Positions 4,034 to 52,188 of a stretch of 64,000 nt of DNA are shown here, in pieces. Both the position numbers and the translations under genes were made by a program. Source of the stretch: an uncultured Dehalococcoidales bacterium (GTDB lineage Bacteria > Chloroflexota > Dehalococcoidia > GIF9 > AB-539-J10); assembly GCA_964652095.1 (NCBI GenBank), contig CAZZAC010000001.1, positions 9,258 to 73,257 on the forward strand, read 5' to 3'. The first letter of the stretch is position 1. Each line of letters starts with the position of its first letter. The notes under the pieces were generated by a model. That model saw nothing but the letters and a program-made list of their open reading frames with translations. It made no database searches and had not been told where the DNA came from.

Positions 4034-4058
4034 ACTAAAATGGCGTCAACTCTGTTTT

Positions 4059-4130
4059 TCTCTGCGCCGGGTCACTACCAGATTAAGGAAAGCCAGCTCC
4101 AGCAATCCCGGTCGGTACAGTGCGAGAAGT
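4059..4130 (+). repeat. about 70-bp direct repeat, copy A, in the leader of the GLUG gene (tctctgcgccgggtcactaccagattaagg...)
   Basis: About 75% identical to 6406..6476 by eye alignment; the two copies bracket the GLUG gene. Confidence 0.6.
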
Positions 4131-4135
4131 GCAAT

Positions 4136-35508: not shown

Positions 35509-36828
35509 TTGAATTACAGCCAGGCAGAAGAGTATCTCAATAGTTTTGTTAATTATGAGCAGATTCCGGGCATATCTTATGCCCAGCCTGGTTATAGCTT
35601 AAGACATGTAGAGGAGCTACTAAATCGTATGGGCAACCCTCAGTTGGCAGCCAGGACGATTCACATCGCAGGCACCAAGGGGAAAGGGAGTGTGGCAGCT
35701 ATGATTGCTCAGGTCTTAAGTGCTTCAGGCTATAAAACAGGGTTATATACCTCCCCCCACCTTCATAATCTAAGGGAGCGTATTAGCATAGATGGCACTC
35801 TAATTTCTGAAGCTGATTTTGCTGCAGCCATGGCTGAGGTCAAGCCTTTTATCGAATCAATGAAGCAGGACACTAGCCTCAGGCAGCTGACTTATTTCGA
35901 GGCATTGACTGCGCTGGCATTCGCTTATTTCCAGAAAAAGCGGGTGGACTTTCAAGTACTGGAAGTAGGTCTAGGTGGCAGCCTTGATGCTACTAATGTA
36001 GCCAGGCCTGTAGTTTGTATCATTACCCCTATCAGCCTGGACCATACTCAGATTCTGGGTAATAGCCTGGAGGAAATAGCTCGGGAAAAAGCAGGCATTA
36101 TCAAGTCCGGCTGCTGGGTGGTGCTTTCCCCCCAGCCAGAAGAGGCGGCTCCGGTAATCAGCGATATTTGTCGTGAGAAGGAAGCGAAGGTGGTTCAGGT
36201 AGGCAAGGAAATCACCTGGCATAAGATAGGCGGTGACCTCCATCATCAATCGCTGGCGATCGAGGGTAGAACAAGTAAATACCAGGTTAGCATTCCTCTT
36301 TTAGGCGATTACCAGCTTGAGAATGCCGCCACCGCTGTAGCTGCTCTAGAGATATTGGCTTCCGAGGGCTTTACCATCTCAGCCGCCGATATTGCTCAAG
36401 GGCTTGCCCGAGTTAAGTGGCCGGGGCGATTCCAAATTTTGCAGCAGCACCCTACGGTGTTGGTTGATGGAGCCCATAATGTAGCGTCGATGAGAAGCTT
36501 GGTGAGCAATATCAAAGCATACTTCAGTTACAAACGGATTTTCCTTGTTTTCGGGACATCCTGTGACAAAGACATACCGGGAATAGTGAATGAGCTGGTT
36601 TCCCTCTCCCCTCAAGTTATAGTTACACGGACAGCACATTCCCGTGCTGCCCCCCTTTCAACCCTGGCTGCCGAGTTCAGCAAGCGAGGCATTGAGCCTA
36701 AAACCGGAGAGACTGTAACCGAAGCTATATCCCGAGCTTTATCTCTGGCAGACAGGACAGATATTATCTGCGTTACCGGCTCTCTGTTTGTCGTGGCGGA
36801 AGCGTTAGATTATTTCTCGAGGGGCTGA
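35509..36828 (+). CDS. folC: bifunctional folylpolyglutamate synthase/dihydrofolate synthase
   Basis: 439 aa. The P-loop IHIAGTKGKGS and overall Mur-ligase-like organisation. Confidence 0.85.
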   Translation: MNYSQAEEYLNSFVNYEQIPGISYAQPGYSLRHVEELLNRMGNPQLAARTIHIAGTKGKGSVAAMIAQVLSASGYKTGLYTSPHLHNLRERISIDGTLISEADFAAAMAEVKPFIESMKQDTSLRQLTYFEALTALAFAYFQKKRVDFQVLEVGLGGSLDATNVARPVVCIITPISLDHTQILGNSLEEIAREKAGIIKSGCWVVLSPQPEEAAPVISDICREKEAKVVQVGKEITWHKIGGDLHHQSLAIEGRTSKYQVSIPLLGDYQLENAATAVAALEILASEGFTISAADIAQGLARVKWPGRFQILQQHPTVLVDGAHNVASMRSLVSNIKAYFSYKRIFLVFGTSCDKDIPGIVNELVSLSPQVIVTRTAHSRAAPLSTLAAEFSKRGIEPKTGETVTEAISRALSLADRTDIICVTGSLFVVAEALDYFSRG

Positions 36829-37082
36829 GTTTCAATAGGAGAGGCAAGGGCTTCTTTGGGTAACATATTGCCTAGAATTTGCTGGAGCGCCATGATGTGG
36901 CTACATGTCTCCCATTGGGAAAAGAAATGACAGGTACAATGCCATTTCCCATTGGCATAGCTTAGCTTGTGGTCATCGTTTTCACCATGGAAGACAGCGG
37001 TTAAACCTGAGAAAGTGACACGACCTGGTTCTTGAGCATACCTTTTGGCTTTTTCAATCTTCCCGATAAGGCTGGATCGCAT
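36810..37082 (-). CDS. small SWIM zinc-finger-like protein
   Basis: 90 aa. CTCHFFSQWETCSHI fits the CxCx(n)CxH SWIM pattern. Confidence 0.45.
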   Translation of the reverse strand: MRSSLIGKIEKAKRYAQEPGRVTFSGLTAVFHGENDDHKLSYANGKWHCTCHFFSQWETCSHIMALQQILGNMLPKEALASPIETQPLEK

Positions 37083-37153
37083 CTTAATTTCCTCTTTTAA
37101 GTATATAACAGGGCGCAGAAAAAGTCCAGCATCTGTACTCGTTCATATGATTA

Positions 37154-37343
37154 GTGACACTTCTTTTTCTATCATTGCGAGAAACGAGATTCCTCGCTTA
37201 CGCTTCGGAACAGGCTCCGCGATCTTGTGGGGCTCCTGGGGATACAGATTGCCACGCCCCAACAAGTCGAGGCTCGCAATGACACAGGAGATTACTACCC
37301 AACGTTACAAACATATGAAGTGTCACCCATCTATCTGAACTAG
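37154..37343 (+). repeat. structured repeat element, copy 1 (about 190 bp; internal inverted repeats; candidate ncRNA or MITE-like element)
   Basis: Shares long blocks of identity with 47925..48130 (gtgacacttc..tcattgcgag....attgccacgccccRacaagtcgRggctcgcaatgacacRggag...ttacaaacatat.aagt.tcacccacctatctgaa.tag). Outer stem tcattgcgag/ctcgcaatga and inner hairpin ccccgac..gtcgggg. Confidence 0.6.
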
Positions 37344-37403
37344 ATCAGCATCCGCAACCAGATACAATTATGCTATCATAGTAGTTGGTTTGGAAACGAT
37401 GTA

Positions 37404-37931
37404 ATGGTCTTTCAGCCGCAACTCAAAATTCTTATCAGCCGTGACGAGATAGCTAAAGCTGTGAACAGGCTGGCTTGTGACATTGAGAGGGATTATCAAG
37501 GTAAACAGCCTTTGCTCGTTGGCGTCCTCAAAGGGTCCTTTGTGTTTATGGCTGACCTTATTCGCCAGCTTGATCTGCCCCTGGAGCTCGATTTTATCAG
37601 ACTCTCCAGCTACGGCGCTGCCAGGGAGAGTTCAGGCAAAATAAGAGTAATTCAAGGGGTCAAGACGCGTATAAAAGGCAGAGATGTTCTGGTAATTGAG
37701 GATATCGTGGATACTGGAATTACCATCTCTTTTTTACTCGATTACTTGAAGAAGAAGCAGCCTGCTTCGTTGAAGCTCTGTGCTCTAACAGACAAGCCAT
37801 CTCGGCGCAGGGTTCCGGTACCCATTGACTATCGTGGCTTCACCGTGCCCAATAAATTTATCGTGGGATATGGACTGGACTGCGATCAGAGGTTCCGCAA
37901 TTTGCCCCACATCTATGCCCTGGAGGATTAA
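37404..37931 (+). CDS. hpt: hypoxanthine phosphoribosyltransferase
   Basis: 175 aa. The PRPP-binding motif VLVIEDIVDTGITI and the typical Hpt N-terminus. Confidence 0.85.
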   Translation: MVFQPQLKILISRDEIAKAVNRLACDIERDYQGKQPLLVGVLKGSFVFMADLIRQLDLPLELDFIRLSSYGAARESSGKIRVIQGVKTRIKGRDVLVIEDIVDTGITISFLLDYLKKKQPASLKLCALTDKPSRRRVPVPIDYRGFTVPNKFIVGYGLDCDQRFRNLPHIYALED

Positions 37932-37934
37932 GAG

Positions 37935-39632
37935 ATGAATTTAAAGGAGCTTATTTCGGTGGCCAGAGGGGAAATACCGGCTGATTTGCTCCTGAAAAAT
38001 GCCCGGATAGTAAATACTTTTGTTGGAGAAATAGAGCAAGCCGACGTGGCTATCTATGGCGATAGAATTGCCGGAGTAGGAGACTATGGTAAGGCCAAGG
38101 AAATTGTCGATTTACAAGGCAGGTTTTTAGCTCCCGGGCTGATTAACGGGCATACGCACATAGAAAGCTCTATGCTTCACCCGGCAAGGTATGCTCAGGC
38201 CGTGGTCCCCAGAGGCACTCTGGCTGTGGTCACCGACTTACATGAAATCGCCAACGTTTGTGGATTTGAAGGAATAAAATTCGTCACGGATTTGGCGCGA
38301 AAGCTCCCACTGGATATGCTATTCATGGCCCCTTCATGCGTGCCAGCAACCCATCTGGAGACATCAGGCGCCCGAATCAGCTCTAAGGAAGTAAAGAAAA
38401 TTCTAGCTCACCCTAATATAATCGGCTTAGGAGAGATGATGAACTTTCCCGGCGTGGTCAGTGGGGATGAAGAGGTTTTAAAGAAAATCAGTGCTTCAAA
38501 GGGCAAGGTTATTGATGGACACGCTCCGGGACTCGCTGGCAAGGAGCTAAATGCCTACTTGTCCGCTGGCATTCTTTCTGACCACGAATCCACTACGTTG
38601 GAAGAAGGGAGAGAGAAGTTGCGTCGGGGCATGTACCTGATGATTCGAGAGGGCTCTTCAGAGAAGAACCTGGACGCCCTTCTGCCTCTGGTTACCGATA
38701 ATACTTATAAAAGATGCTTCTTTGTGGTGGATGACCTTAGTTGCTTTGATTTACTTCGGGAAGGCGATATTGACGCTGTGGTACGAAAGGCTATTGACAG
38801 AGGCCTGGAGCCAATTCGCGCAATTCAGATGGCGACGATTAATACTGCTGAGTATTTCAGACTTTATGATAGAGGGGGCATTGGCCCGGGGTATATAGCC
38901 AACCTTATAACCATCACCGACCTGGCTAAATTAGAGATAGACATGGTGTTTTACCAGGGCAAGCTGGTGGCAAGGCAAGGCAAGCCCTTGTTCCCCTTGC
39001 CCCCTGTTACTCTGGAGCTAAGAGACACGGTACGCATTAAGCCTCCTATGGGGAAATCGCTGCAAATAGCCGCTGTCGATGAGACCTATCCAGTTATCGA
39101 AATCGTCCCCGGACAGATAGTCACCAAGAAGGCGGTGGAAAAGATGAAAGTTGTGGATTGGACAGTTATGCCCGATCTGGAGAGAGATATTCTGAAGCTG
39201 GTGGTGGTGGAACGGCACAAGGCTAGCGGCAATATCGGATTGGGATTAGTGAAGGGATTCGGCTTAAAGAAAGGAGCGTTAGCCTCGTCAGTGGCTCATG
39301 ACTCTCACAACATAATAGCGGTGGGTACCAATGACCTCGACATTCTTAAGGCAATTGAGGAAATTAATAGGCTGCAAGGCGGGCTGGTTGTTTGCGCCAA
39401 CCTGGAAATTCTCGCTTCTTTACCCTTGCCCATCGCTGGCCTGCTTTCCCCTGAGCCGCTGGAGGTAGTCGTGTCCCAGCATGAACAAGTGGAGAAGGCT
39501 GCCGCCAGCCTGGGGAACCTGCCTCCGGCTCCATTTGCCATCCTATCTTTCCTGGCATTGCCCGTGATTCCCGAACTCAGACTGACCGATTTAGGCCTGG
39601 TGGATGTGGTAGAGTTTAAGTTGCTCAAGTAG
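37935..39632 (+). CDS. ade: adenine deaminase
   Basis: 565 aa. Amidohydrolase metal site FLAPGLINGHTHIESSML and overall Ade length/organisation. Confidence 0.85.
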   Translation: MNLKELISVARGEIPADLLLKNARIVNTFVGEIEQADVAIYGDRIAGVGDYGKAKEIVDLQGRFLAPGLINGHTHIESSMLHPARYAQAVVPRGTLAVVTDLHEIANVCGFEGIKFVTDLARKLPLDMLFMAPSCVPATHLETSGARISSKEVKKILAHPNIIGLGEMMNFPGVVSGDEEVLKKISASKGKVIDGHAPGLAGKELNAYLSAGILSDHESTTLEEGREKLRRGMYLMIREGSSEKNLDALLPLVTDNTYKRCFFVVDDLSCFDLLREGDIDAVVRKAIDRGLEPIRAIQMATINTAEYFRLYDRGGIGPGYIANLITITDLAKLEIDMVFYQGKLVARQGKPLFPLPPVTLELRDTVRIKPPMGKSLQIAAVDETYPVIEIVPGQIVTKKAVEKMKVVDWTVMPDLERDILKLVVVERHKASGNIGLGLVKGFGLKKGALASSVAHDSHNIIAVGTNDLDILKAIEEINRLQGGLVVCANLEILASLPLPIAGLLSPEPLEVVVSQHEQVEKAAASLGNLPPAPFAILSFLALPVIPELRLTDLGLVDVVEFKLLK

Positions 39633-39643
39633 AATTAACTCCG
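39469..39643 (+). repeat. direct repeat, left copy (intact 3' end of ade)
   Basis: About 85% identical to 44294..44460 (eye alignment). Together they bracket a 4.65-kb accessory segment. Confidence 0.7.
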
Positions 39644-39664
39644 ATGCAATCGGAGTTTCCTATG
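39644..39664 (+). other. perfect 9-bp stem hairpin (aactccgat gcaa atcggagtt) immediately after the ade stop, at the left junction of the accessory segment
   Basis: Read directly. A near-identical hairpin (ctccgatgaaatcggag) occurs at 48196..48212. Confidence 0.4.
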
Positions 39665-39743
39665 CCGATTCTAGTTAGCGATAAATCCATTTCCCTTCAT
39701 TATATCTTCGCAGTTGTCAGCGGGTCGCCGATCAGCCGCGCCT

Positions 39744-40145
39744 TTATGCGTCGGCTGCAACGTCTTGTTGGGCGGTTATCTCTTCTTTCGGATTTGGACC
39801 GTATTTGTTGTCCCCAGGCTGGCTGTCTGTACAAGCGAGAACCAGAAACCAGATTGGGCCCGCAATCGGGATCAGATTTATCAACAAGTACCAACCGCTT
39901 TTCCCAACATCATGGAGCCGTCGAACCGATACGGCTAGCCCTGGAACAAAGACTGCGAGAGCATATAAAATAGATAATAGGCCAAGGCCAAATACTGCAA
40001 AGGTTAGTAGTCCGATGCCCAAGTCAATGAGAGAGGCCACAAGGCTGAAGATGAAATTGAAAAGAAAGAACATCCAGTATTCTTTCCGCCTCGCACGCCC
40101 ACTGAACACTGCATACTTTTTCAGCACTTTGATATACCAATTCAT
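39744..40145 (-). CDS. DUF805 domain-containing inner-membrane protein
   Basis: 133 aa. RARRKEYW followed by hydrophobic helices (YhaH/YhaI-like). Preceded by promoter-module copy R1. Confidence 0.7.
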   Translation of the reverse strand: MNWYIKVLKKYAVFSGRARRKEYWMFFLFNFIFSLVASLIDLGIGLLTFAVFGLGLLSILYALAVFVPGLAVSVRRLHDVGKSGWYLLINLIPIAGPIWFLVLACTDSQPGDNKYGPNPKEEITAQQDVAADA

Positions 40146-40345
40146 GTTGCTTCTCCTTTCGCTCGTTTGTCGTTTTGTCGGACGGCAAGCTGGATATTCT
40201 CGCTGTCCAACATCTATTCCTATACCTATTTCCTATACTTCTTCTATAGGCATGTACTATATGACAAGACAATATGAAATGTCAAGGATGAAATGTTAAG
40301 GACCTCTCTATTTAGATTGTGTTGCAATGTGAAGGATAATTAGAC
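40146..40345 (-). promoter_or_regulatory. conserved promoter/5'-UTR module, copy R1: -35 TTGACA (40285..40280), 18-nt spacer, -10 TATAGT (40261..40256), about 100-nt leader with hairpin cctatagaagaagtatagg and RBS AAAGGAG
   Basis: Blocks of this sequence recur at 43201..43290, 44125..44275 and 46299..46485, each immediately 5' of a different minus-strand gene. Confidence 0.55.
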
Positions 40346-40420
40346 CACATGTATCATTATTTGATCCGACTCACAGATCCAAATTGTTTGCCACCACAAC
40401 ACAAAGCTCTGTCTATTTCC

Positions 40421-41236
40421 TCATCCCGGTTTTCTGAATTCCAGACAATACCCATGATACTGACCATGCATTTTCCAAATACCGTCTACAAGTACCGCTT
40501 TCATTGTTTCTGGAACCAGATGAACAGGAACGGAGGTGTCTACTTTATTATCCTGACTTGAACGCGACAAACGAAGGAAACGAGCCACGGTTCGGGCTAC
40601 CTGTTCCGATTCATCAGCAATTACTATTTTACTTCCCGGTCGGGCAACACGGATCATCTCATCAATGGCCTTCTTCTTTTCAGAAAAAAAGTTGATCCCA
40701 CCAACGTGAAAAACACTGTCAAATGAGTCCGATTTAAAAGGCAACTCCTCTGCCTTCCCCAAGAAAAGGTCTACCGGCCATCCTCGGGTCGTGACCAACC
40801 TGTGACAATTAGTCAGCTGCGCCGCTGAGATGTCCAGGCCATATATGTCACCCACTTTTGGAGACTCAAATAGGTAAGGAAGATTACCACCAGACCCTAT
40901 CGAAACCTCCAGAACTCGTCCATTGTTTAGTTCCAATCTGTGCAAAATCTCTGTGCGGGCCTTACGTTCTCCACCCATAGGCAAAAACGATAACCTATCA
41001 ATAATTGTTTCGAAACGTGAAAATCTATTATAGAATCGAGCGAACCGTTGGTTAAGACCCTCCAGTTCCTGTAAATCGATAAAGTGCACAATGCCGTTTT
41101 TAATGATATAGCTTCTTTCACAGTGCGAGCAAAACAACTCCCCCTCATTCCCACTTGTATTACCTGATTCATCGCGAAGTGTAAGTTCAGTTTGACAACC
41201 AGGACAACATAGCAACTCTAATGTTGAGCGCTTCAT
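40421..41236 (-). CDS. Trm112-like zinc-ribbon / class I SAM-dependent methyltransferase fusion
   Basis: ORF 40421..41251, start at MKRS. N-terminal LELLCCPGCQ...LFCSHC zinc ribbon, then a Rossmann-fold MTase region (LEVSIGSGGN...YGLDIS). Confidence 0.65.
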   Translation of the reverse strand: MKRSTLELLCCPGCQTELTLRDESGNTSGNEGELFCSHCERSYIIKNGIVHFIDLQELEGLNQRFARFYNRFSRFETIIDRLSFLPMGGERKARTEILHRLELNNGRVLEVSIGSGGNLPYLFESPKVGDIYGLDISAAQLTNCHRLVTTRGWPVDLFLGKAEELPFKSDSFDSVFHVGGINFFSEKKKAIDEMIRVARPGSKIVIADESEQVARTVARFLRLSRSSQDNKVDTSVPVHLVPETMKAVLVDGIWKMHGQYHGYCLEFRKPG

Positions 41237-41317
41237 TGCTATTCCTCCCAAGCTATTATGTTTTGGTCTAACGTCTGAAATCAGAGGCGGCTGTAAGCCG
41301 TCCGCTAGAATGAATTG

Positions 41318-41491
41318 TTATGTCAGTTCTTTCAAGATATGCCGGGCAAGATATTCATCTATTTCGTTATGCCTCGGAACGGGCTGCTTTTTACCTGTGG
41401 CAGGATTTTTGTATAGGTCGTGACGAGGCCCATGTCTCACAAGAATGCACCCTGCGTCAGATAGCCTCTTGATGAGGTCTTTCCTCCTCAT
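41318..41491 (-). CDS. hicA: HicA-family mRNA interferase toxin (57 aa; not in the supplied ORF track because it is shorter than 60 aa)
   Basis: Hand translation of the minus strand gives MRRKDLIKRLSDAGCILVRHGPRHDLYKNPATGKKQPVPRHNEIDEYLARHILKELT, the HicA/YcfA pattern (..GW..VR..GSHH.F.HP...VP.H...I). Its ATG overlaps the upstream stop as ATGA. Confidence 0.6.
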   Translation of the reverse strand: MRRKDLIKRLSDAGCILVRHGPRHDLYKNPATGKKQPVPRHNEIDEYLARHILKELT

Positions 41492-41697
41492 ACTGATAAC
41501 TTAAGTTCTTTAACCAGATGCTCATCTGGTACGTCTTCCATCGTCATCAGTGCATAGGCATCTTTCATATTATCTTCAAGTTCTTCTAATGTTTTCCCCT
41601 GCGTCATTATCTCAGGGTGTTCAAGTAACTTCCCTACCCAGAATTTCTCACCTCTCCAGTAAATCATGTTTAATTTAGTTTCCATTTTCTGCCTCAC
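41488..41697 (-). CDS. hicB: HicB-like (UPF0150) antitoxin
   Basis: 69 aa small acidic protein (..YWRGEKFWVGKLLEHPEIMTQGKTLEELEDNMKDAYAL..), translationally coupled to hicA. Confidence 0.5.
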   Translation of the reverse strand: MRQKMETKLNMIYWRGEKFWVGKLLEHPEIMTQGKTLEELEDNMKDAYALMTMEDVPDEHLVKELKLSV

Positions 41698-41824
41698 AAA
41701 ATCCCTTTTAGTATCTTAGCATAGTTTACTGAATTTCGGAGACACTATACTTAATTCCAAAGAGTATTTTGCCTCCTCATCTACATCAAGAGACAAGCAT
41801 AGCGTGCCCTTAAATGTGATACCT

Positions 41825-42409
41825 TTAATCATCACGTAAACCGGTATTCCTTTGCTCCAGCTTTAGCAATCGTTTCTTAACGGACAATCCACCCCCATAT
41901 CCAACAAGCTCTCCGTCACTCCCGATTACCCGATGGCAGGGAACGATTATGCTGATGGGGTTTGTCCTGTTAGCATTACCAACCGCTCGAACAGCCCTTG
42001 GACTGCCAATATCCTTTGCTATTTGTCCATATGTGGACGTGGCTCCGTAGGGAACTCTCATCAATGCCTTCCAGACTCTTCTCTGAAAATCCGTCCCCGC
42101 CATGAGCAGAGGAATGTCAAACTCTTTTCTATTTCCGTTGAGGTACTCATCAAGTTGTTTTCTCGTTTTCTCCAGGACTTCATCCTTTTGCTCGACAAAC
42201 TCGGCATCCAGTTTCTTCCTGATCCAGTCATCAATTGCTCTCCTTCCCTTTTTGTCTCCGAACCCGAGCAGACAGAGCTTGCCGCCGAAAGAACCAAGTA
42301 CCAGTTCGCCGATCTCAGTCTTGTGACGTTGAATGTTGACCTGGTTTATTCTTGCCTCCAAAGAATGTTGTCGGCGACGTGCAGTGTCGCTGCAGTGTCT
42401 TGCGTCCAT
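41825..42409 (-). CDS. ogt: methylated-DNA--protein-cysteine methyltransferase (Ogt/MGMT)
   Basis: ORF 41825..42499. Active-site motif PCHRVIG and DNA-binding helix YGQIAKDIGSPRAVRAVGNANRTNPISIIV. Start uncertain (no canonical start after the upstream gene's stop); Met31 chosen, giving a 64-bp overlap with the upstream methyltransferase gene. Confidence 0.7.
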   Translation of the reverse strand: MDARHCSDTARRRQHSLEARINQVNIQRHKTEIGELVLGSFGGKLCLLGFGDKKGRRAIDDWIRKKLDAEFVEQKDEVLEKTRKQLDEYLNGNRKEFDIPLLMAGTDFQRRVWKALMRVPYGATSTYGQIAKDIGSPRAVRAVGNANRTNPISIIVPCHRVIGSDGELVGYGGGLSVKKRLLKLEQRNTGLRDD

Positions 42410-43152
42410 GGTTCGCCCGTCTTGCGTGCCACGATCATGATTTCCATCTCGTCCAGGTCGAGTGTCCTTCTTCCCCAGCTCCCGGCAGTTCCACCCCATA
42501 TGCTGAGGACAGACATACCGGCGATCTGGAGCAGGAGACGTAACTCCGTCGGGACGAAAGACCGTTCTCGAACGGCAATACGAGGCAGTCCTTCTTGCGG
42601 CGGGTGCTCCGACGATTCGACCATGGTTATCGGGTCGAATCGTCCCTCAGCCACGTCCTTGTTTTGATACCTGCGGAGCATGGCTGCTGCGTTGAGAACG
42701 GTGAATACGACCTTCGCCCCTGTTTTCAGGCTTTGGGAGATGTTGCGGAGAATGGCCAGTGGTTGACTTATGGGATCATCAGTCTGACTGAGAAGTCCCA
42801 AAGCCCCTTCGCATAGGCAGATCGCCGCATCGAACTTTTCCGGGAACGCGAACTGCGTTGCATCTGAGCGGACCCATTCTACCTTCACGTTTTCGGCTTC
42901 GGCTTTAGTCGCTGCCTTTGCCAGCATCTCCGCGGATAAGTCCAGTCCTGTTACTGAGTAACCGCGTTTAGCAAGTTCTATGGAATGCCGGCCCGTCCCA
43001 CACCCGACATCCAGAACTGAGTCGCCGGCCTTGAGTTCCAGTTCCTCGAGCAAGAAGTCTACCTCGTCGACTGTGTTCTTGGTGAAGACGTTATTATCGT
43101 AGATCGGTGCGTGAGCGTCAAAGAACTGCTCCCATGTCGTTTTCTCTTGCAT
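42346..43152 (-). CDS. class I SAM-dependent methyltransferase
   Basis: ORF 42346..43200. VLDVGCGTGRHSIELAKRGYSVTGLDLS. Start moved to Met17 (MQEKTTW) because AAGGAG lies 5 nt upstream and the -10 of module R2 would otherwise overlap the first ATG. Confidence 0.7.
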   Translation of the reverse strand: MQEKTTWEQFFDAHAPIYDNNVFTKNTVDEVDFLLEELELKAGDSVLDVGCGTGRHSIELAKRGYSVTGLDLSAEMLAKAATKAEAENVKVEWVRSDATQFAFPEKFDAAICLCEGALGLLSQTDDPISQPLAILRNISQSLKTGAKVVFTVLNAAAMLRRYQNKDVAEGRFDPITMVESSEHPPQEGLPRIAVRERSFVPTELRLLLQIAGMSVLSIWGGTAGSWGRRTLDLDEMEIMIVARKTGEPWTQDTAATLHVADNILWRQE

Positions 43153-43200
43153 CTTTGCTCCTTCTGTAAACCTGTCAGTCCACCTCTTGTGTATAGGCAT

Positions 43201-43290
43201 CTACTCTATAGCGACGCTGTATGAGGTGTCAAGGGTTTCTCTATTTAGGTTGTTTTGAGGTGTGAGGGATAATTCGGTGTAACGGAAAAT
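43201..43290 (-). promoter_or_regulatory. conserved promoter module, copy R2 (truncated leader): -35 TTGACA (43232..43227), 16-nt spacer, -10 TATAGA (43210..43205)
   Basis: Upstream block (gggataattcggtgtaacg...ctaaatagagaaacccTTGACA) matches the R1 and R3 upstream blocks. Confidence 0.5.
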
Positions 43291-43338
43291 ATCACTGGCG
43301 CGCTCTTGCACGTCCGGTGCATGCGCTTGTTCGACGTG

Positions 43339-44124
43339 TCATATGGTTATCACGCCTTCCAAATAGAGTACTGCCTTACCAGAAATCTTTACTCGATCTC
43401 CGGCATGGACGCAGAACAACTCGCCACCGCGCTTCGATATCTGAAATGCATGCAGATTCTTCTTGTGGAGTTCGCCCGCCCAGTATGGAGCCAGAACACA
43501 ATGCGCAGAACCTGTCACCGGGTCCTCCGGTATCCCAACCCGGGGGGCGAAAACTCTTGAGACGAAGTCGCTCCGACTTCCCCTGGATGTCACGATGATG
43601 CCACGACACTCAACCCGCTCAAGCGCAAAAAAATTGGGCTGAAGTTCCCGAACAGCTTCCTCGTTCTCCAGTACCACAAGTAAACCTTCGACGGAACCCA
43701 GTATTGCGATTGGTGTCACACCAAGTGCCTCCTTCAAGCCAGACGGCGGAATCCAGCTATGGACGGGTCTGGAGGGAAAATCCATTTCCAGAAGACCATC
43801 GCGTTTACAAACGATGAGTTGCCCGCTTTTCCGCGTATGGAAACGGATTTCCTCTTCCGACCAGTCTTGGCAGGCGAAAAGGACAAAGGCGCTCGCCAGT
43901 GTTGCGTGCCCGCAAAGCGCAACTTCAGTCGTTGGAGTGAACCATCGGAGGTCAAACCCGTCGTCATTGCGAACGAGGAAGGCGGTCTCTGACAAGTTAT
44001 TCTCGGCAGCGATGGACTGAAGCATGTTATCGTCGATCCACGAATCCAGTATGCAAACAGCGGCCGGATTACCCGAGAAGACTTCGGAGGTAAAGGCATC
44101 AACCTGGTAGATGGGTATTTTCAT
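43339..44124 (-). CDS. PhzF-family (phenazine-biosynthesis-like) isomerase
   Basis: 261 aa. N-terminus MKIPIYQVDAFTSEVFSGNPAAVC is characteristic of the PhzF/YddE family. Confidence 0.8.
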   Translation of the reverse strand: MKIPIYQVDAFTSEVFSGNPAAVCILDSWIDDNMLQSIAAENNLSETAFLVRNDDGFDLRWFTPTTEVALCGHATLASAFVLFACQDWSEEEIRFHTRKSGQLIVCKRDGLLEMDFPSRPVHSWIPPSGLKEALGVTPIAILGSVEGLLVVLENEEAVRELQPNFFALERVECRGIIVTSRGSRSDFVSRVFAPRVGIPEDPVTGSAHCVLAPYWAGELHKKNLHAFQISKRGGELFCVHAGDRVKISGKAVLYLEGVITI

Positions 44125-44275
44125 TATTCTCGTTCTTTCTTCGCCGAATATCTATTTTTGTATCTATTTTCTATGCTTATTCTATAGGCACGTACTGTAT
44201 GACGAGGCGTTATGAAATGTCAATGGTTTCCCCATTTAGGTCGTGTTGAAATGTGAGTTATGACTCGATGCGGTA
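44125..44275 (-). promoter_or_regulatory. conserved promoter/5'-UTR module, copy R3: -35 TTGACA (44223..44218), 18-nt spacer, -10 TACAGT (44199..44194)
   Basis: Same architecture and sequence blocks as R1; immediately 5' of the PhzF-family gene. Confidence 0.55.
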
Positions 44276-44293
44276 TTTATAGTGATATAGTTG

Positions 44294-44460
44294 TATCCCA
44301 GCATGAATAAGTAGAGAAAGCTGCCGCCAGCCTGGGTAACTTGCCCCCAGCACCCTTTGCCCTCCTTTCCTTCCTAGCCCTGCACGTGATTCCCGAACTC
44401 AGACTGACTGATTCAGGCCTGGTGGACGTGGCAGAGTTTAAGTTGCTCGAGTAGAACTAA
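44294..44460 (+). pseudogene. direct repeat, right copy: degenerate fragment of the ade 3' end (in-frame stop after SQHE)
   Basis: About 85% identical to 39469..39643, including the gene's last codons and stop (..gagtttaagttgctcRagtag). Confidence 0.7.
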
Positions 44461-44551
44461 CATGATAACGCCCGCGCTCAGCGGTAAATTGCGAGCGGCT
44501 ACGCGAGCAATTTGTCCGGCTGCAGCGCCTTGTTAGGGCGCCTTGGCATAT

Positions 44552-44947
44552 CTATAGATTCTCCAGCGCTTTGCCAATGCGTTTTTTATCTGCATTATCA
44601 GCGAATACTTTCAGTGCTCGTACCATTGCCTCGGTCATTTCCCCAATATTCCAGCCTTTAGTCTCTGGTGTGACTTTCATTCGAGCATATGTTAGATGGG
44701 CTACCTCTTTGCCAGTGCGAGATCGAGCCGGTTCCAACGCTGCTGGAAAATCAGGACGAACTTTTTTCCACTGTTCTGCAGAGCTGAAGAAGTCACATGC
44801 TATCGCATCATCTTTCCGAACATTTGACGGCTCCCAAATAAAGTCAATTAATGCCCTTAAGTGAATTGTGAATGACTCTAAGAGGGCGTTGATAACAAAC
44901 TGAGAATTGTTTGGCTGAGATAGCCCTTTTGCGGCGCCTACCATCAT
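44552..44947 (-). CDS. hypothetical protein (131 aa), no recognisable family
   Basis: ORF with GAGG 5 nt before ATG ATG; lies in the accessory array. Function unknown. Confidence 0.45.
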   Translation of the reverse strand: MMVGAAKGLSQPNNSQFVINALLESFTIHLRALIDFIWEPSNVRKDDAIACDFFSSAEQWKKVRPDFPAALEPARSRTGKEVAHLTYARMKVTPETKGWNIGEMTEAMVRALKVFADNADKKRIGKALENL

Positions 44948-45248
44948 GTTGACCTCATAAGCTAGGTGCTCTCCGCAAATTCCTTTAACTCCTCATCAGA
45001 TGGAATCTCTCTAGGCATTTGGTAATCCCTCGCACCTCGCTGACGTCCGAGTTCAGGAGCGCCAAGGGTGATATGCGAACCGGCCCTTTGCGGCAACCCA
45101 AGTTACTTTGGATTATGGCAGATTAGCATAGGATTGTAAACTGGACATGTTATTGCCCTCTTGCCGCAAAGCTGCATCGGAACGACTTTCGGAAGCAACT
45201 TTGTGGCCCAAGGGAGGAGCGCCCTTAGCAGTCGGTTTCAAAGAGTTG

Positions 45249-46298
45249 TTAGCCAGCACATGGTTTTGTCCAGTCTCTGCTACTTTCTTCAACGTCAAAT
45301 CGAATTGGATCAGACACATAAGCTGCTGCAAACTGTGCATTGCACACTACCTCGCAAGGTGTGACATTCGGGTTCTGGATAGTAAAAAGCGTTGGTCGAA
45401 AGTCCCACGTATCGGGTCCCAATTTGTCAAAAGCTATCCCAAACTTCTTCAATGGACAAGCAGTCTGGCCAATCCACGCACAGATGATATTTGTCTTTTC
45501 TTTTACCTTTGGCCTATTTAATGCCAATCCGGGAGTTACTCTGATACCCCTTTGGCTGAGTTGATCGAGTGTTTCACACAATGCTCCTGCTACGAGATCA
45601 GGAATCGCAATGAAATCTTCGATTTCTAATGAGCCACCGTCTATTTCTGAAAGCCCAAATACAATGCGGTTAATGCTTTCCTGAGGCATAAACATTCTTA
45701 TTGTTGCTTCTGCGAATCTACCAAAAAGTTGTTTGTGTTCTTCGTTAGCAACTATCGGATCGCTGTCGGTGAACCAGACAATGTTTTGCTCATTGGAAAA
45801 TACCGTTGCTATTACTTGTGCTCCAAAGTGTACTACTCTTAACATGTTTTCCAGTGTACTTTTCTTGATTGCAGAAAGTGCCGGCTTTACCTCAAGGAAC
45901 TGTTCCGCGAACATGTATTTCATCTTGGTATCAACTGCAAATGTAACTAGTAATCTATCCATTGCGCCTGCGCAAGACAAAAAAGCTGGCAGAGCTCTCA
46001 GTTTTATCCTGTCGTTGAGCCCCTTATACGACATTCTACGGCTCTTCAGATGAAAATCATCCCTGAGCATTTTTCTAGCACCATTGAAATAATCAGCACC
46101 AGAACGTCCAACAACCAAGAAGCTGTAGGTTTGATATCTCCCGTGGACACGACTGTAGTCTGAGAAGACAAAGAGTGTTTTGTCCTTAGACAAGTCTGGT
46201 ATTAACGAGGGATTCTTCCATGCTTCTGCGACTATCATGTCGCAAATATAGTTAATGAATCCCGCTCTTTCATCTCCAGGGCGTCGTATTTTGGCCAT
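45249..46298 (-). CDS. hypothetical protein (349 aa), no recognisable family; loose PD-(D/E)xK-like spacing (TDSD...EEHK) noted only as speculation
   Basis: Long ORF preceded by promoter-module copy R4; clean start MAKIRRPG. Confidence 0.5.
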   Translation of the reverse strand: MAKIRRPGDERAGFINYICDMIVAEAWKNPSLIPDLSKDKTLFVFSDYSRVHGRYQTYSFLVVGRSGADYFNGARKMLRDDFHLKSRRMSYKGLNDRIKLRALPAFLSCAGAMDRLLVTFAVDTKMKYMFAEQFLEVKPALSAIKKSTLENMLRVVHFGAQVIATVFSNEQNIVWFTDSDPIVANEEHKQLFGRFAEATIRMFMPQESINRIVFGLSEIDGGSLEIEDFIAIPDLVAGALCETLDQLSQRGIRVTPGLALNRPKVKEKTNIICAWIGQTACPLKKFGIAFDKLGPDTWDFRPTLFTIQNPNVTPCEVVCNAQFAAAYVSDPIRFDVEESSRDWTKPCAG

Positions 46299-46485
46299 GC
46301 CCTTCTCTTTTGTATTCGCAGCTAGAGATCAAATTGTTCAACAGTTATGTTGGATAGTGTATTTCCAGCGAAAAGACATTGAGTGTCCGATTGCGATATC
46401 CTGCTGGCTAACATCTATTTTATACCTATTTTCTATACTTACTCTATAGGCATGTACTGTATGACGAGGCACAGCAAAGTGCAGG
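46299..46485 (-). promoter_or_regulatory. conserved 5'-UTR/-10 module, copy R4 (-10 TACAGT at 46461..46456; -35 side replaced because the module abuts the glyQS 3' end)
   Basis: Leader block acatctattttatacctattttctatactt.ctctataggcatgtactgtatgac is nearly identical to R1 and R3. Confidence 0.5.
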
Positions 46486-46489
46486 ATTC

Positions 46490-47818
46490 TCACTTCTGCC
46501 TTGTGGCCCATAATGCTGAGGCGTCGAAAGCCTCTCCTTTGAGTTTGGCCTCTAATATCTTCCCTAGTTCCTCTACGGGCACTCGAATTTGCGCCAGGCT
46601 GTCCCTCTCCCGGATGGTAACCTGCTTATCCTCCAGGGATTCAAAATCTATGGTAACGCAGAACGGGGTGCCGATTTCGTCCTGACGTCTGTACCTCCGC
46701 CCTATGCTTTGTGAATCATCGTAATCGGTCACGAAATTTGGACACAGTTTGTTGAAAACCTCTTTAGCCAGAGGGGTTAATTTTTCATTCCTGCTTAAGG
46801 GCAAAACAGCTACCTTAATAGGAGCCAGAGAACGGTGCAGGTGTAGAACTGTTCTCTTTTCCCCTTCGACTTCCTCTTCATCATAGGCATCGATGAGAAA
46901 AGCCAGGACAGAGCGGTCGACGCCAGCCGAGGGCTCAATAGCATAGGGAACGTACTTCTCGCCAGCCTCAGCATCATAGTAACCGAGCTCTTTACCGCTA
47001 TGCTTGGCATGCTGAGTAAGGTCAAAATCGCCCCTGTTGGCTATACCCTCCAGCTCTGACCAGCCCATAGGAAATAGATACTCGATGTCATAGCAGTCCC
47101 TGGCATAGTGGGCGAGCTCATCTTTGCCGTGCTGGCGCAGGCGAAGATTTTCCTTCCTGACACCCAGTTTGACATACCAGTCAAACCTCTCCTTGACCCA
47201 GTAATCAAGCCACTCTTCGTCAGTCCCGGGCTTAACGAAGTACTCCAGCTCCATGTGCTCAAACTCCCTGGTTCTGAATATGAAGTTGCCTGTGGTGATT
47301 TCATTGCGGAAAGATTTGCCTATCTGGGCGATGCCCAAAGGCAACTTTTTTCTGGAAGTGGTGATTACATTATCAAAGTTAACGAATATGCCCTGGGCAG
47401 TTTCGGGGCGGAGGTAGATTGTGCTTGCCTCCTCCTCCACAGGACCCATAGAAGTCTTAAACATCAAGTTGAACATGCGGGGCTCGGTTAGCTCACCATC
47501 ACATTTGGGACATCTCTTGCCCTCTATTTCGTTAGCGCGCCACCTCAGGTGGCAAGATTTACACTCTACCAGGGGGTCTGTGAAGCTATCAATGTGGCCG
47601 CTAGCGGCCCAGACTCCGGGGTGCATCATTATTGATGTGTCCAGACCTACTACATCATCCCGCTCGTGGACTATTGACTTCCACCAGGCGTCTCTAACAT
47701 TGCGCTTAAGCTCCACCCCCATAGGGCCATAATCCCAGCAGCTAGCTAAACCGCCATATATTTCGCTGCTGGGGAAAACAAGCCCCCTCCGCTTACACAG
47801 AGAGACGATTTTATCCAT
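46490..47818 (-). CDS. glyQS: glycine--tRNA ligase (alpha2 homodimeric type)
   Basis: ORF 46490..47899. Class II aaRS motifs (FRNEITTGNFIFRTREFEHMELEYF). Start moved to MDKIVSLCKRRGLVFPSSEIYGG, the conserved GlyRS N-terminus. Confidence 0.85.
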   Translation of the reverse strand: MDKIVSLCKRRGLVFPSSEIYGGLASCWDYGPMGVELKRNVRDAWWKSIVHERDDVVGLDTSIMMHPGVWAASGHIDSFTDPLVECKSCHLRWRANEIEGKRCPKCDGELTEPRMFNLMFKTSMGPVEEEASTIYLRPETAQGIFVNFDNVITTSRKKLPLGIAQIGKSFRNEITTGNFIFRTREFEHMELEYFVKPGTDEEWLDYWVKERFDWYVKLGVRKENLRLRQHGKDELAHYARDCYDIEYLFPMGWSELEGIANRGDFDLTQHAKHSGKELGYYDAEAGEKYVPYAIEPSAGVDRSVLAFLIDAYDEEEVEGEKRTVLHLHRSLAPIKVAVLPLSRNEKLTPLAKEVFNKLCPNFVTDYDDSQSIGRRYRRQDEIGTPFCVTIDFESLEDKQVTIRERDSLAQIRVPVEELGKILEAKLKGEAFDASALWATRQK

Positions 47819-47924
47819 ATCCACTTTAGCGGGCATCTTCAGGTCTCCTTTCTCCGATGCATCGGAGCTTAGCTTACCAGCTTTATTCACAGGCGTCAAA
47901 GGGTTGTCTTCCTTCAGTACCTGA

Positions 47925-48130
47925 GTGACACTTCCTTTCTGTCATTGCGAGGAGCCCTGATGAATCAGGGCGACGAAGCAATCTCTAAGCGAGATTCCTC
48001 AGTCCAACCATAGCAGTCTCCAGTTTTGCAATGAGATTGCCACGCCCCGACAAGTCGGGGCTCGCAATGACACGGGAGGTTATCGCCAACATTACAAACA
48101 TATAAAGTATCACCCACCTATCTGAATTAG
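47925..48130 (+). repeat. structured repeat element, copy 2 (about 205 bp)
   Basis: See copy 1 at 37154..37343. Same orientation and the same internal inverted repeats. Confidence 0.6.
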
Positions 48131-48222
48131 GTCAAGGGGATGGCAGGAAGCTGAGAGTTCAAGGTAGCAAAGGAAAAAGGTTCTGGAGGAGAGCGAGTTG
48201 CTCCGATGAAATCGGAGTTTAC

Positions 48223-50658
48223 TCACTTTTTTGCCTTGGCAGTTTTCCGTGTAGTGAAGCTCAGGTTATCTTCCTTCAAGCTAACAGCTACGGTATCTCC
48301 TTCTTTGAACTCGCCCTGCAATATCTTTGTCGATATGGGATTTTCCATGTACCTCTGAATAGCCCGGCGTAAGGGGCGAGCTCCGTATACAGGATCATAG
48401 CCTTTTTTAGCTAACCAAGCTTTGGCCTCTTCATTGACTTCAAGCTTAATACTACGCTCAGTCAACCTCCGTTCTACCTCATGGATAAGCAGGTCGACGA
48501 TGCTCTTCAAGTGCTCCTCAGTTAGAGGATGGAATATAATGACATCATCTATCCTGTTGAGTAGCTCAGGGCGGAAGGTTTTCTTTAAGGCGCTTTCTAT
48601 AGCGGTCCTCATTCTTTGTTCGCCGCCTTCATCTTTTTTACTGGGAAAACCAATTCCCCCACGCTGATATTCCTCAGTGCCCAGGTTACTGGTCATGATT
48701 ACCACTGTGTTTTTGAAGTCCACAGTCCGGCCATGCCCATCGGTAAGCCTGCCGTCTTCCAGCAGCTGCAATAGTATGTTGAAAACGTCGGGATGAGCTT
48801 TTTCTACCTCGTCGAACAGGATGACCCGGTAGGGACGGCGGCGCACTGCCTCGGTCAACTGGCCTCCTTCTTCATACCCCACATATCCCGGTGGCGACCC
48901 GATAAGACGGGATACGGTATGCTTTTCCATATATTCCGACATGTCCAGTCTTACCATGGTCTCTTCATCGGCGAAAAGAAACTCAGCTAAAGCGCGAGCC
49001 AACTCGGTTTTCCCCACGCCGGTAGGGCCGAGGAAAATGAAGCTGCCAATGGGGCGTTTGGGGTCCTTGAGCCCGGCTCGGCCTCGCTTGATGGCCTCGG
49101 AGACGGCAGCCACTGCCTCTTCCTGGTCCACTATCCTCTGGTGAATCCTTTCCTCCATGTGAACCAATTTATCAGTTTCCGTTTCCATCATCCGCGAAAC
49201 GGGTATGCCCGTCCACTGGGCAACCAGTCCGGCGATATCCTCCTCGTCTACCACACTGTCAATTTTCTTCTCCTTCTGCCATTGCAGTTTGGCCTTATCG
49301 TACTCTTGTTCCAGGCGCATCCTTTCCGCCTTCAATTCGGTGGCTTTCTGGTAGTCCCCTCGTTGCGAAGCCGCCTCCTCTTCATCAATCAGGTGCTTCA
49401 TCTTCCGGTCCAGTGTTTTAACTTCCTTTGGAGCGCTTTCCATATCGATGCGTAGCTTGCTGGCTGCTTCGTCGATCAAGTCAATTGCCTTGTCAGGCAA
49501 GAATCTATCGGATATATATCTCTGGCTCAGCTTGGCAGCAGCTACCAGGGCGGAATCCTCGATTTTTATTTTGTGATGTGCTTCATATCTGGGACGAAGT
49601 CCTCGGAGCATCTCTATGGTGGCTTCTACGCTAGGTTCATCGAGATAAACAGGGCTGAAACGTCTCTCCAGAGCTTTATCTTTTTCAATACGCTTTCTAT
49701 ACTCGTCGAGTGTAGTAGCCCCGATACATTGAATCTCACCACGAGCCAGTGCGGGCTTCAGCATATTACTGGCGTCGATTGCTCCTTCGGCAGCTCCGGC
49801 TCCTACCACGGTGTGAAGCTCATCAATGAACATAATAACTTCGCCGGCCGCCTGCCGGACTTCATCTAGAACTGCCTTCAACCTTTCCTCAAACTCCCCG
49901 CGGAATTTGCTTCCAGCTACCAGTGCTCCCATGTCTAAAGCCACCACCTTTTTCCCTTTCAGGGAATCGGGAACATCTTCAGCGACAATCTTCTGAGCTA
50001 ATCCCTCAGCAATAGCCGTCTTGCCCACGCCGGCGTCGCCAATAATCACGGGATTGTTCTTGGTGCGCCGGGAGAGTATTTGCGTCACACGTTTGATTTC
50101 GTTTTCCCTCCCGATTACCGGGTCGAGTTTGCCCTGACGAGCTAACTCCGTGAGGTCATGTCCGTATTTTTCCAGGGAACGGTATTTGCTTTCCGCTTGA
50201 CGGTCGGTAACTCGATGTCCGCCACGAATTTTCTGCAAGGCTTGATAAATTTTTTCCTGGTTAACGCCAGATTCAGCTAGAATTGTTGCGGCTTCGCCTC
50301 TGGTCTCCCCGGCAATAGCAATGAGCAAATGCTCAGTGCTGACAAACTCGTCCTTGAGCCTATCGGCCTCCCTGTTGGCATTTTCGAGAAGAGCGGAAAT
50401 CCGCGGAGTAGCATAAATTTGTCCCGCCTCGTAAGCTACCTTGGGGAAACTCTCAAGCGTTGATTCTACCCGCTGCTTTACCGCTTCGACATCCACACCT
50501 AGCATCTGTAATATGTCCCTGGTTACCCCCTTTTCCTGCTCCAGCAAAGCCAATAGAATATGCTCCACATCCCACTGGTTATGTCGATAGCGGCGAAGTA
50601 GCTCCTGTGAGGCTGCTAAAACCTCCTGTGCCTGCTCAGTAAATCTCTCTGGTTTCAA
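48223..50658 (-). CDS. clpC: ATP-dependent Clp protease ATP-binding subunit ClpC (two AAA+ modules, N-terminal Clp_N repeats, UVR-like linker)
   Basis: 811 aa. Walker A GDAGVGKT and GPTGVGKT; UVR-like segment between D1 and D2; length fits ClpC rather than ClpB. Confidence 0.8.
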
Positions 50659-52023: not shown

Positions 52024-52071
52024 CTCTCTCCCCTAATTATTTTGTGTTAATTATAAAAATGTTTAATAATT

Positions 52072-52101
52072 TTGTCAAATATTGTTAATAATATTTGACA
52101 A
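52072..52101. promoter_or_regulatory. 30-bp near-perfect palindrome TTGTCAAATATTGTT/AATAATATTTGACAA between the divergent dnaJ-hspR-clpC and hsp20 genes; candidate heat-shock (HspR-type) operator
   Basis: 14 of 15 half-site positions are complementary. The location is what is expected for a repressor operator controlling both heat-shock transcription units. Confidence 0.5.
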
Positions 52102-52188
52102 AACTTATCAAAGTTATTTAACCTTCTTATAATATTGCCTGAACTGAGAATGGGGCTCAGGAAAAAATAAAGAAAGGAGGTAACATAG

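Follow-up and report, generated by a model that had tools for sequence, protein, structure and literature searches.

What are the two similar segments that recur, in the same orientation, in a stretch of 64,000 nucleotides from an uncultured Dehalococcoidales bacterium (GenBank assembly GCA_964652095.1, contig CAZZAC010000001.1; the whole stretch is referred to below as the window), and why does each of them stand just upstream of the start of a minus-strand gene? The preliminary description of this DNA, made from its letters, had left two readings side by side, a small non-coding RNA (ncRNA) or an element resembling the miniature kind of transposable element that is bounded by inverted repeats (MITE). 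Both repeats were directly demonstrated to be non-autonomous transposable elements (MITEs) and not an RNA gene. Taken as a whole, they are best explained as MITEs of an insertion sequence (IS) resembling the IS481 family, inserted in a single orientation immediately against promoters, a reading to which we assign a probability of about 85%.

Two insertions and their family

The segments delimited in the preliminary description at 37154..37343 and 47925..48130 are present, co-linear and in the same orientation, and their shared blocks were recovered as repeat families D8, D9 and D14 in a repeat scan of the window. In the window the 35-nt tail motif was met at exactly two places (0.00 expected), and CTCGCAATGACA, allowing at most one mismatch, occurs five times (0.29 expected). 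The conserved unit proved to be wider than first drawn, the left edge lying ~20 nt further out and the right edge 4 nt further out, which places the true limits at 37134-37347 and 47905-48134. Each element consists of a conserved head (TGTMCTCGTTCA, 7 nt, AGTGACAC), a variable interior and a conserved tail of ~60 nt ending in AAGTGTCACCCATCTATCTGAACTAGATCA. The parts of the two copies are listed below in window coordinates, with the left and right inverted repeats of the parent IS abbreviated IRL and IRR.

37134..37347, minus strand when read like the parent IS, from IRL to IRR, and thus in the direction of the target promoter: MITE copy A, 214 bp, with head and tail located and precise empty sites in loci L040, L020 and L022
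37134..37160: head terminal repeat of copy A, TGTACTCGTTCATATGATTAGTGACAC; its reverse complement equals the IRR of the autonomous IS (27/27)
37170..37284: interior of copy A, nested modules of the GTCATTGCGAG...GCAATC type in opposite orientations
37320..37347: tail terminal repeat of copy A, GTGTCACCCATCTATCTGAACTAGATCA; reverse-complemented, it agrees with the autonomous IRL at 24/28 positions (counted by eye)
37129..37133: left target-site duplication of copy A, GCATC
37348..37352: right target-site duplication of copy A, GCATC; a single GCATC in the empty sites
37100..37128, minus strand: predicted target promoter of copy A, -35 TGGACT (37128-37123), 17-nt spacer, -10 TATACT (37105-37100)
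47905..48134, minus strand (orientation as copy A): MITE copy B, 230 bp, with an empty site in L048 and filled orthologous sites in L007, L009, L011 and others
47905..47931: head terminal repeat of copy B, TGTCTTCCTTCAGTACCTGAGTGACAC
47940..48072: interior of copy B, a module pair, TGTCATTGCGAG..(CCCTGAT/ATCAGGG hairpin)..GAAGCAATC and GATTGCC..(CCCCGAC/GTCGGGG hairpin)..CTCGCAATGACA
48107..48134: tail terminal repeat of copy B, GTATCACCCACCTATCTGAATTAGGTCA
47900..47904: left target-site duplication of copy B, AGGGT
48135..48139: right target-site duplication of copy B, AGGGG; a single AGGGG in the L048 empty site
47871..47899, minus strand: predicted target promoter of copy B, -35 TTGACG (47899-47894), 17-nt spacer, -10 TAAGCT (47876-47871), upstream of glyQS

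The outer inverted repeat reported in the preliminary description exists, but its left arm in copy A (tatcattgcgag) carries one mismatch and it is not the terminal repeat of the element; the inner hairpin, described there as perfect, is perfect in copy B and imperfect in copy A (ccccaacaagtcgagg). The outermost inverted repeat had been overlooked, and joins the head (TGTACTCGTTCA..AGTGACAC) with the tail (GTGTCAC..TGAACTAGATCA). Head repeats of the form CTCGTTCA-7 nt-AGTGACAC and reverse-complemented tail repeats of the form CTAGTTCA-8 nt-GGTGACAC were found in all 103 head-tail pairs collected from the family (see below), head and tail forming imperfect inverted repeats with a one-base offset and TG...CA ends. 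Ahead of the tail repeat of copy A lies a 32-nt subterminal block that is conserved among MITE copies. Only short, non-conserved open reading frames (ORFs) cross either copy, as had been stated at the outset, and no transposase gene was found in the window; the window's two copies are therefore non-autonomous.

The family was retrieved with an exact 22-mer from the tail, which was searched in species-representative genomes and in metagenomes. Species-representative genomes yielded 14 loci, all in metagenome-assembled genomes of Dehalococcoidia/Chloroflexota, and metagenomes, sediment metagenomes included, yielded >118 loci among the matches listed, in line with the multi-copy family that two copies in 64 kb had suggested. 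Among the same matches, 103 of 130 tails had a recognisable head 134-435 nt upstream (most often 206-211 nt), and for the other 27 the head was degenerate or the end of the contig was reached. No larger copy carrying a gene was seen among the 130 tails. Long contigs hold a few copies each (three apiece on contigs of 562 kb and 115 kb).

With the element defined as TGTA...ATCA, left and right flanks of 60 non-redundant sites were compared. Identity between left and right flanks reached 62-72% at each of five positions in the 5-bp register only, and other registers stayed near background (0.17-0.47 per position). A 7-bp duplication, read by eye from 14 loci, was rejected on this register test in favour of 5 bp. 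Target-site duplications, which the preliminary description had named as a sign of transposition, were thus found, in the window as GCATC/GCATC and AGGGT/AGGGG. For the detection of empty sites, the joined flanks were matched against the fetched loci. At copy A the filled site reads ...GTCCA GCATC (element) GCATC CGCAACC... and the empty site ...GTCCA GCATC CGTAACC... in L040 (93% identity over 294 nt), L020 and L022; at copy B the filled site reads ...GTCAA AGGGT (element) AGGGG ATGG... and the empty site in L048 ...GTCAA AGGGG GACGAC.... Contigs without copy A carry copy B, and vice versa, which shows that occupancy is polymorphic among close relatives. Terminal inverted repeats, a duplication of fixed length, a small non-coding body, multiple copies, presence or absence at orthologous sites and a cognate IS were accordingly all found, so that of the two readings offered at the outset the MITE stands, while the ncRNA remained unsupported.

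Target promoters and the parent insertion sequence

When the left flanks of the 60 sites were aligned, the pentamer was followed in the resulting logo by TTGACA, whose first T is present at 56/60 sites, by a 17-nt spacer that closes with TGn, and by TATAAT, on the strand pointing away from the element; the right flanks showed no sequence pattern. At most of the 60 sites the duplication directly abuts the -35 box of a complete predicted sigma-70-type promoter, in one orientation, which fires away from the IRR-type head end. A -35 box with at least 4 of 6 matches was present at 65% of sites versus 4.3% of random positions, and a perfect TTGACA at 16/60 sites. The motif TAnnnT followed at 16-18 nt in 48/60 sites versus 4.2% of random positions, and where the -35 was good (at least 5/6), it was present in 92% of cases (24/26), as against 6% of all such hexamers and 11.6% of those in non-ORF DNA. 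Best spacer lengths were 17 nt (39 sites), 18 nt (14 sites) and 16 nt (7 sites), as in natural promoters; since the duplication abuts the -35 while the spacer varies, it is probably the -35, and not the -10, that sets the point of insertion. Four sites (L008, L013, L032 and L092) combine a poor -35 (1-2 of 6) with a perfect -10 at the right distance. Sigma-54 promoters, considered for a few TGGCAC-like left flanks, were dropped on account of a wrong GG-GC spacing.

Both window copies fit this arrangement. The predicted promoter beside copy A faces a 90-aa ORF at 36810-37082 (minus strand, ATG at 37082), was also picked up by an independent promoter scan (TGGACT-17-TATACT at 37128-37100), and is present with the same sequence in the empty sites. 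Copy B fills the stretch from the end of a clpB/clpC-like chaperone gene upstream to the promoter of glyQS (minus strand, ATG near 47836), and that predicted promoter is conserved in orthologues and in the empty site. The placement of both copies just upstream of a minus-strand gene start, already remarked on in the preliminary description, proved to be the key feature. Because the empty sites already hold the promoter, and the spacer and distal flank are unconserved, the promoter is the target and not cargo.

By crude ORF calling, transcription of the head-side gene leads away from the element in 41/49 cases, and the strand of the gene on the other side is random (27 vs 25). Behind the promoters that were hit stand nuoA (L149), glyQS and, ~320 nt further on, EF-Tu (L148), as well as, by reading of the sequences, a tRNA (L137) and 5S rRNA (L089/L110). 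nuoA, EF-Tu, 5S rRNA and tRNA are highly expressed, which would fit targeting by promoter occupancy.

As there was no gene-carrying copy among the tails, the partner IS was recovered from contig-end fragments instead. Three contigs end ~120 nt past a head variant, and their reverse strand encodes there the C-terminus of an integrase-type transposase (...YNTIRPHQALGYLTPQEF...) with its stop codon within the repeat; another contig begins inside the transposase N-terminus, beside a tail-type end. These fragments come from samples of the same metagenome series as the contigs with the window's two copies. Protein searches returned thousands of proteins of 335-346 aa with HTH_28, HTH_32, rve and rve_3 domains, most of them lying on contigs of 1.1-1.4 kb, as is expected of a repeated IS; the related transposases found in metagenomes number ~8,000. 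The parent IS is ~1.1-1.2 kb long and carries a single ORF of 338-346 aa (338-aa type) with a helix-turn-helix (HTH) and an rve domain and with no programmed frameshift. Full IS copies begin with the IRL, TG..CTAGTTCAGATAGATTAGTGACAC, followed by TATAAT and the start codon, and close with the IRR, GTGTCACTAATCATATGAACGAGTACA; the ends read TG..CTAG... and ...GAGTACA, and TG...CA termini with a 5-bp duplication fit the range of the IS481 family. The parent is thus classed from its sequence as a probable IS481-like IS, its best match falling just below the curated cut-off.

The autonomous IS appears at the same kind of site. A -35-like hexamer follows after exactly 5 nt in 11/15 distinct right flanks, and the downstream host gene, wherever it is in view, is co-directional with the transposase. 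In L132 (1-160) a full-length IS separates the promoter from an older MITE; its pentamer, GCAAT, directly adjoins the -35 of the promoter orthologous to that of copy A, and a similar stack was seen in L154 (90-250). Stacking at one promoter is what promoter-directed targeting predicts, and repeat hits of this kind mean that shared occupancy across genomes need not be ancestral.

Three short ORFs (63-68 aa; P0001, P0006 and P0020) were retrieved with a chimeric transposase query. In P0001 a different N-terminal part is fused to the C-terminus of the transposase; this ORF may represent an IS copy with an internal deletion, intermediate toward a MITE, and P0006 and P0020 are seemingly C-terminal transposase fragments only.

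Proposed promoter recognition and rival explanations

In the mechanism that we propose, the MITE would be moved in trans by the IS transposase, which would bind the ends that the two share. The insertion point would be measured from the -35, with strand-transfer cuts at about -36 and -41, and all determinants of recognition would lie on the promoter side, which would fix the orientation. The integrase-type enzyme would recognise promoter DNA that is occupied and bent by the RNA polymerase holoenzyme, with sigma region 4 at the -35. When sigma region 4 sits at a -35 box, the DNA immediately upstream is bent. The targets of integrase-type transposases are strongly bent (discussed in PMC10045372). 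Recognition of holoenzyme-bound promoter DNA is favoured over direct read-out, at roughly even odds, because whole promoters are hit, weak -35 boxes are tolerated, and conservation of the -35 is no stronger than in ordinary promoters. Insertion at this position would provide a 'safe haven', in which the core promoter and gene are kept intact and only upstream sequence is displaced. It is put forward more tentatively that an IS481-like transposase may select its target through the transcription initiation complex as such, at the DNA bend upstream of a sigma-70-occupied -35. Were it so, the element would be a bacterial counterpart of the targeting of RNA polymerase III (Pol III) promoters by Ty3/Ty1, which a very large clade may share (the ~8,000 related transposases), and to our knowledge the first bacterial transposon guided by RNA polymerase.

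Several observations weigh against the overall reading or narrow it. The best NCBIfam model for the transposase, NF033577 (IS481 family transposase), scored 202-203 bits over 282/284 of the profile, below its curated cut-off of 224 (the IS3 family model came next with 94-96 bits). Among full-length IS copies only the flanks of L133/L134 match (CTATC(T)), flanks being taken from short, probably chimeric contigs; on contigs of 1.1-1.4 kb and on some longer ones the two flanks seem to have been joined in assembly from different copies. A duplication of 6 bp is also possible, target and element end both carrying an ambiguous A/T. About 10 of the 60 sites have no convincing promoter, and promoters were predicted from sequence, with the Dehalococcoidia consensus assumed to be sigma-70-like. 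The loci were sampled through one exact tail 22-mer and represent one subfamily (>118 metagenome loci among the matches listed), not an unbiased census. As the window holds no transposase gene, we infer mobilisation in trans. The terminal repeats, finally, contain GTGACAC, which shares TGACA with the -35 box and favours a direct reading of the target.

That last point belongs to the strongest rival, which seems somewhat less probable than recognition of holoenzyme-bound DNA. It keeps the same MITE and has the transposase HTH recognise a TTGACA-like hexamer directly, as the GTGACAC of its own ends, so that the -10 enrichment would reflect surviving insertions only. The shared TGACA lies in the same orientation as in the IRL, insertion is anchored on the -35 next to the duplication while the spacer varies over 16-18 nt, and the first T of the hexamer is kept in 56 of the 60 sites; the ISAba32 group of IS1202 inserts with the same geometry, 5 bp from a specific site and with a 5-bp repeat. 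What tells against it is that TAnnnT accompanies 11.6% of non-ORF -35-like hexamers at the right spacing and 92% of those at occupied sites; it is hard to see why selection should prefer insertions beside real promoters to those beside inert intergenic hexamers. The four sites L008, L013, L032 and L092, with their poor -35 and perfect -10, point the same way, and apart from its first T the -35 looks about as well conserved as in ordinary promoters such as those of E. coli.

An improbable further explanation is that the host has taken the element over as an upstream regulatory or insulating module, with hairpins that block read-through or with a transcription-factor site, and that retention at orthologous promoters reflects a function in addition to targeting. 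Many diverged contigs carry a filled glyQS site, the G+C-rich interior hairpins keep their pairing, and copy B separates the end of the clpB/clpC-like gene from the promoter of glyQS. Both window sites are nevertheless polymorphic for presence and absence, no terminator-like sites were found in either copy, and independent insertions at one promoter would share their position in any case; L132 is such a repeat hit, and occupancy is no proof of retention.

Structured small ncRNA genes, or a cis-regulatory leader such as a T-box for glyQS, with the inverted repeats as RNA stems, are very improbable. Compared with shuffled controls, the two copies have far better folds (z = -4.9 and -6.5), as is to be expected wherever nested inverted repeats make up a sequence. 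Each copy has a gene downstream, in one case glyQS, which in Firmicutes is regulated by a T-box; the hairpins of the inner modules also differ in sequence between the copies with pairing kept. Rfam, however, gave 0 matches for the whole window at the gathering score and, for 36900-48400, 0 at E<=1, and among 30 non-redundant copies 0 double changes were seen in 13 terminal-repeat pairs and 9 module-stem pairs, invariant pairs being uninformative; the Rfam match and stem covariation by which an RNA was to be recognised were thus both looked for and neither was found. A few 'compensatory' pairs outside the long stems coincide with misalignments between different variants of the module. Between head and tail repeats the differences recur at fixed positions, offset by 1 nt, which means that complementarity is not being maintained. 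Element length ranges from 134 to 435 nt with a modular interior, an intrinsic terminator was not found in either copy by a terminator scan, and the duplications and precise empty sites show that the unit was inserted as a whole, at a point upstream of the promoter and hence not within the transcribed leader. A T-box leader of glyQS was rejected on the same grounds, there being no match to an Rfam model and the element lying upstream of the promoter and not in the leader.

Least probable of all is a portable promoter cassette, in which the promoter is part of the mobile unit: MITEs and ISs with outward promoters are known, and most of the 60 copies show the promoter logo at a constant distance from their end, but the same promoter is kept in empty sites with one copy of the pentamer, the duplication sits between element and promoter, conservation across copies is high in the ends of the element and absent from the promoter spacer onward, and the promoters differ in sequence and drive unrelated resident genes.

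Promoter-abutting insertion of an IS481-like element may be set beside several known systems. The classic IS481 target preference is NCTAGN. With the IS481 family the element shares a single-ORF transposase with HTH and rve (DDE) domains and no frameshift, TG...CA termini, a short duplication, and a short non-coding derivative that keeps only the ends. Duplications in that family span 2-15 bp and are mostly of 6 bp (PMC10045372). It departs from the family in its sub-cut-off score (202 vs 224 bits), its 5-bp duplication and its one-orientation target abutting the -35. The nearest published analogue that we found is the ISAba32 subgroup of IS1202, in which one end lies exactly five bp from an XerCD recombination site, with a 5-bp repeat (bioRxiv 10.1101/2022.12.17.520857). 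Common to both are an rve transposase related to IS481, the five-bp distance from a protein-binding site, the 5-bp duplication and one fixed end facing the site. There, however, xrs/dif is faced by the transposase-proximal IRL, whereas here the promoter is faced by the transposase-distal IRR, and the present element has an abundant MITE derivative, so that the geometry is the sole common ground. No IS1202-type model was matched in the NCBIfam scan of the transposase.

Tn7, through TnsD, inserts at attTn7 in a specific orientation, at a fixed distance and with the neighbouring gene left intact, and has a 5-bp duplication and asymmetric ends of the TG...CA type; it differs in relying on a TnsABC+D machine and one site per genome, whereas here a single small transposase serves many sites of generic promoter architecture. 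The integrases of Ty3/Ty1, which are eukaryotic retroelements, insert at or upstream of transcription start regions through demonstrated contacts to TFIIIB or Pol III. Insertion in such regions by an integrase-fold enzyme is common to both, and if the RNA-polymerase reading is right, site choice would here too follow the transcription machinery and not sequence. Correia/NEMIS and similar bacterial MITEs are short, intergenic and abundant, have terminal inverted repeats and often lie beside gene starts, but they duplicate TA and act on expression through their own promoter or processing sites; we know of no report of MITEs of this type at one fixed position relative to a pre-existing -35.

Neither this MITE nor the GTCATTGCGAG module, nor IS481-type insertion against promoters, was found described in a literature search of incomplete coverage. 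The element itself, as a MITE derived from an IS481-like IS, belongs to a known kind, and the choice of target is probably the new feature. It would add a class of target site to bacterial transposition, alongside attTn7, REP (repetitive extragenic palindromic), xrs and res sites, and would show how a mobile element multiplies in a small, gene-dense genome without destroying genes. Each copy would mark an active promoter, independently of sequence, in uncultivated Dehalococcoidia. With every insertion the region beyond -40, in which UP elements and activator sites are located, is exchanged for other sequence, so the family may rewire regulation; if targeting is protein-guided, a compact single-protein tool for DNA insertion beside promoters is also suggested.

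Interior modules and other repeats in the window

The interior of the elements is built from modules of the form GTCATTGCGAG-(core)-GCAATC, whose opposite orientations gave rise to the outer inverted repeat and hairpins of the preliminary description. The inner repeats and hairpins are therefore nested copies of a separate short palindromic module and not an RNA fold of the element. The module pattern occurred 306 times in ~1 Mb of fetched DNA, with 113 distinct cores, many of them different perfect hairpins, and a looser seed motif gave 171 hits away from recognised MITEs. Modules (for example at L012:6384-7297, L023:9215-9292 and L043:5251-5342) often stand in inverted pairs, and orthologous MITEs differ mainly by the gain, loss or exchange of modules. 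They form a separate repeat family nested in the MITE, which may be a second MITE or a REP-like element.

One solo module, GTCATTGCGAG...GAAGCAATC, lies at 31420-31458 in the window, within a minus-strand ORF of 340 aa (30695-31717), where it is read in frame as ...TMSLRGAKRRSNL..., as though a palindromic repeat had entered a coding gene without breaking its frame; this ORF had no Pfam match. In L004, L005, L055, L062 and L099 the MITE interior is of low complexity (...AAATCCCAAACCCTAAAC...TTTGGCATTTAGACATTTGGATTT...) and the elements reach up to 435 nt, which appears to reflect another nested repeat.

Other repeats were seen elsewhere in the window. Direct repeats of 54-174 nt with 66-86% identity (39466-39639/44288-44461; 40209-40341, 43221-43274, 44147-44265 and 46409-46485) recur between consecutive minus-strand genes (DUF805, methyltransferases, PhzF-like and others) and may be a shared upstream or regulatory region or a repeat family. 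A long array of 78-nt tandem repeats at 4517-6182 lies in a 781-aa ORF (4040-6385), whose protein has repeats of ~26 residues. Just upstream of a gene start, at 52055-52118, an A+T-rich near-perfect palindrome, TTTTGTCAAATATTGTTAATAATATTTGACAAAAC, carries TTGACA on both strands and may be a divergent promoter or an operator.

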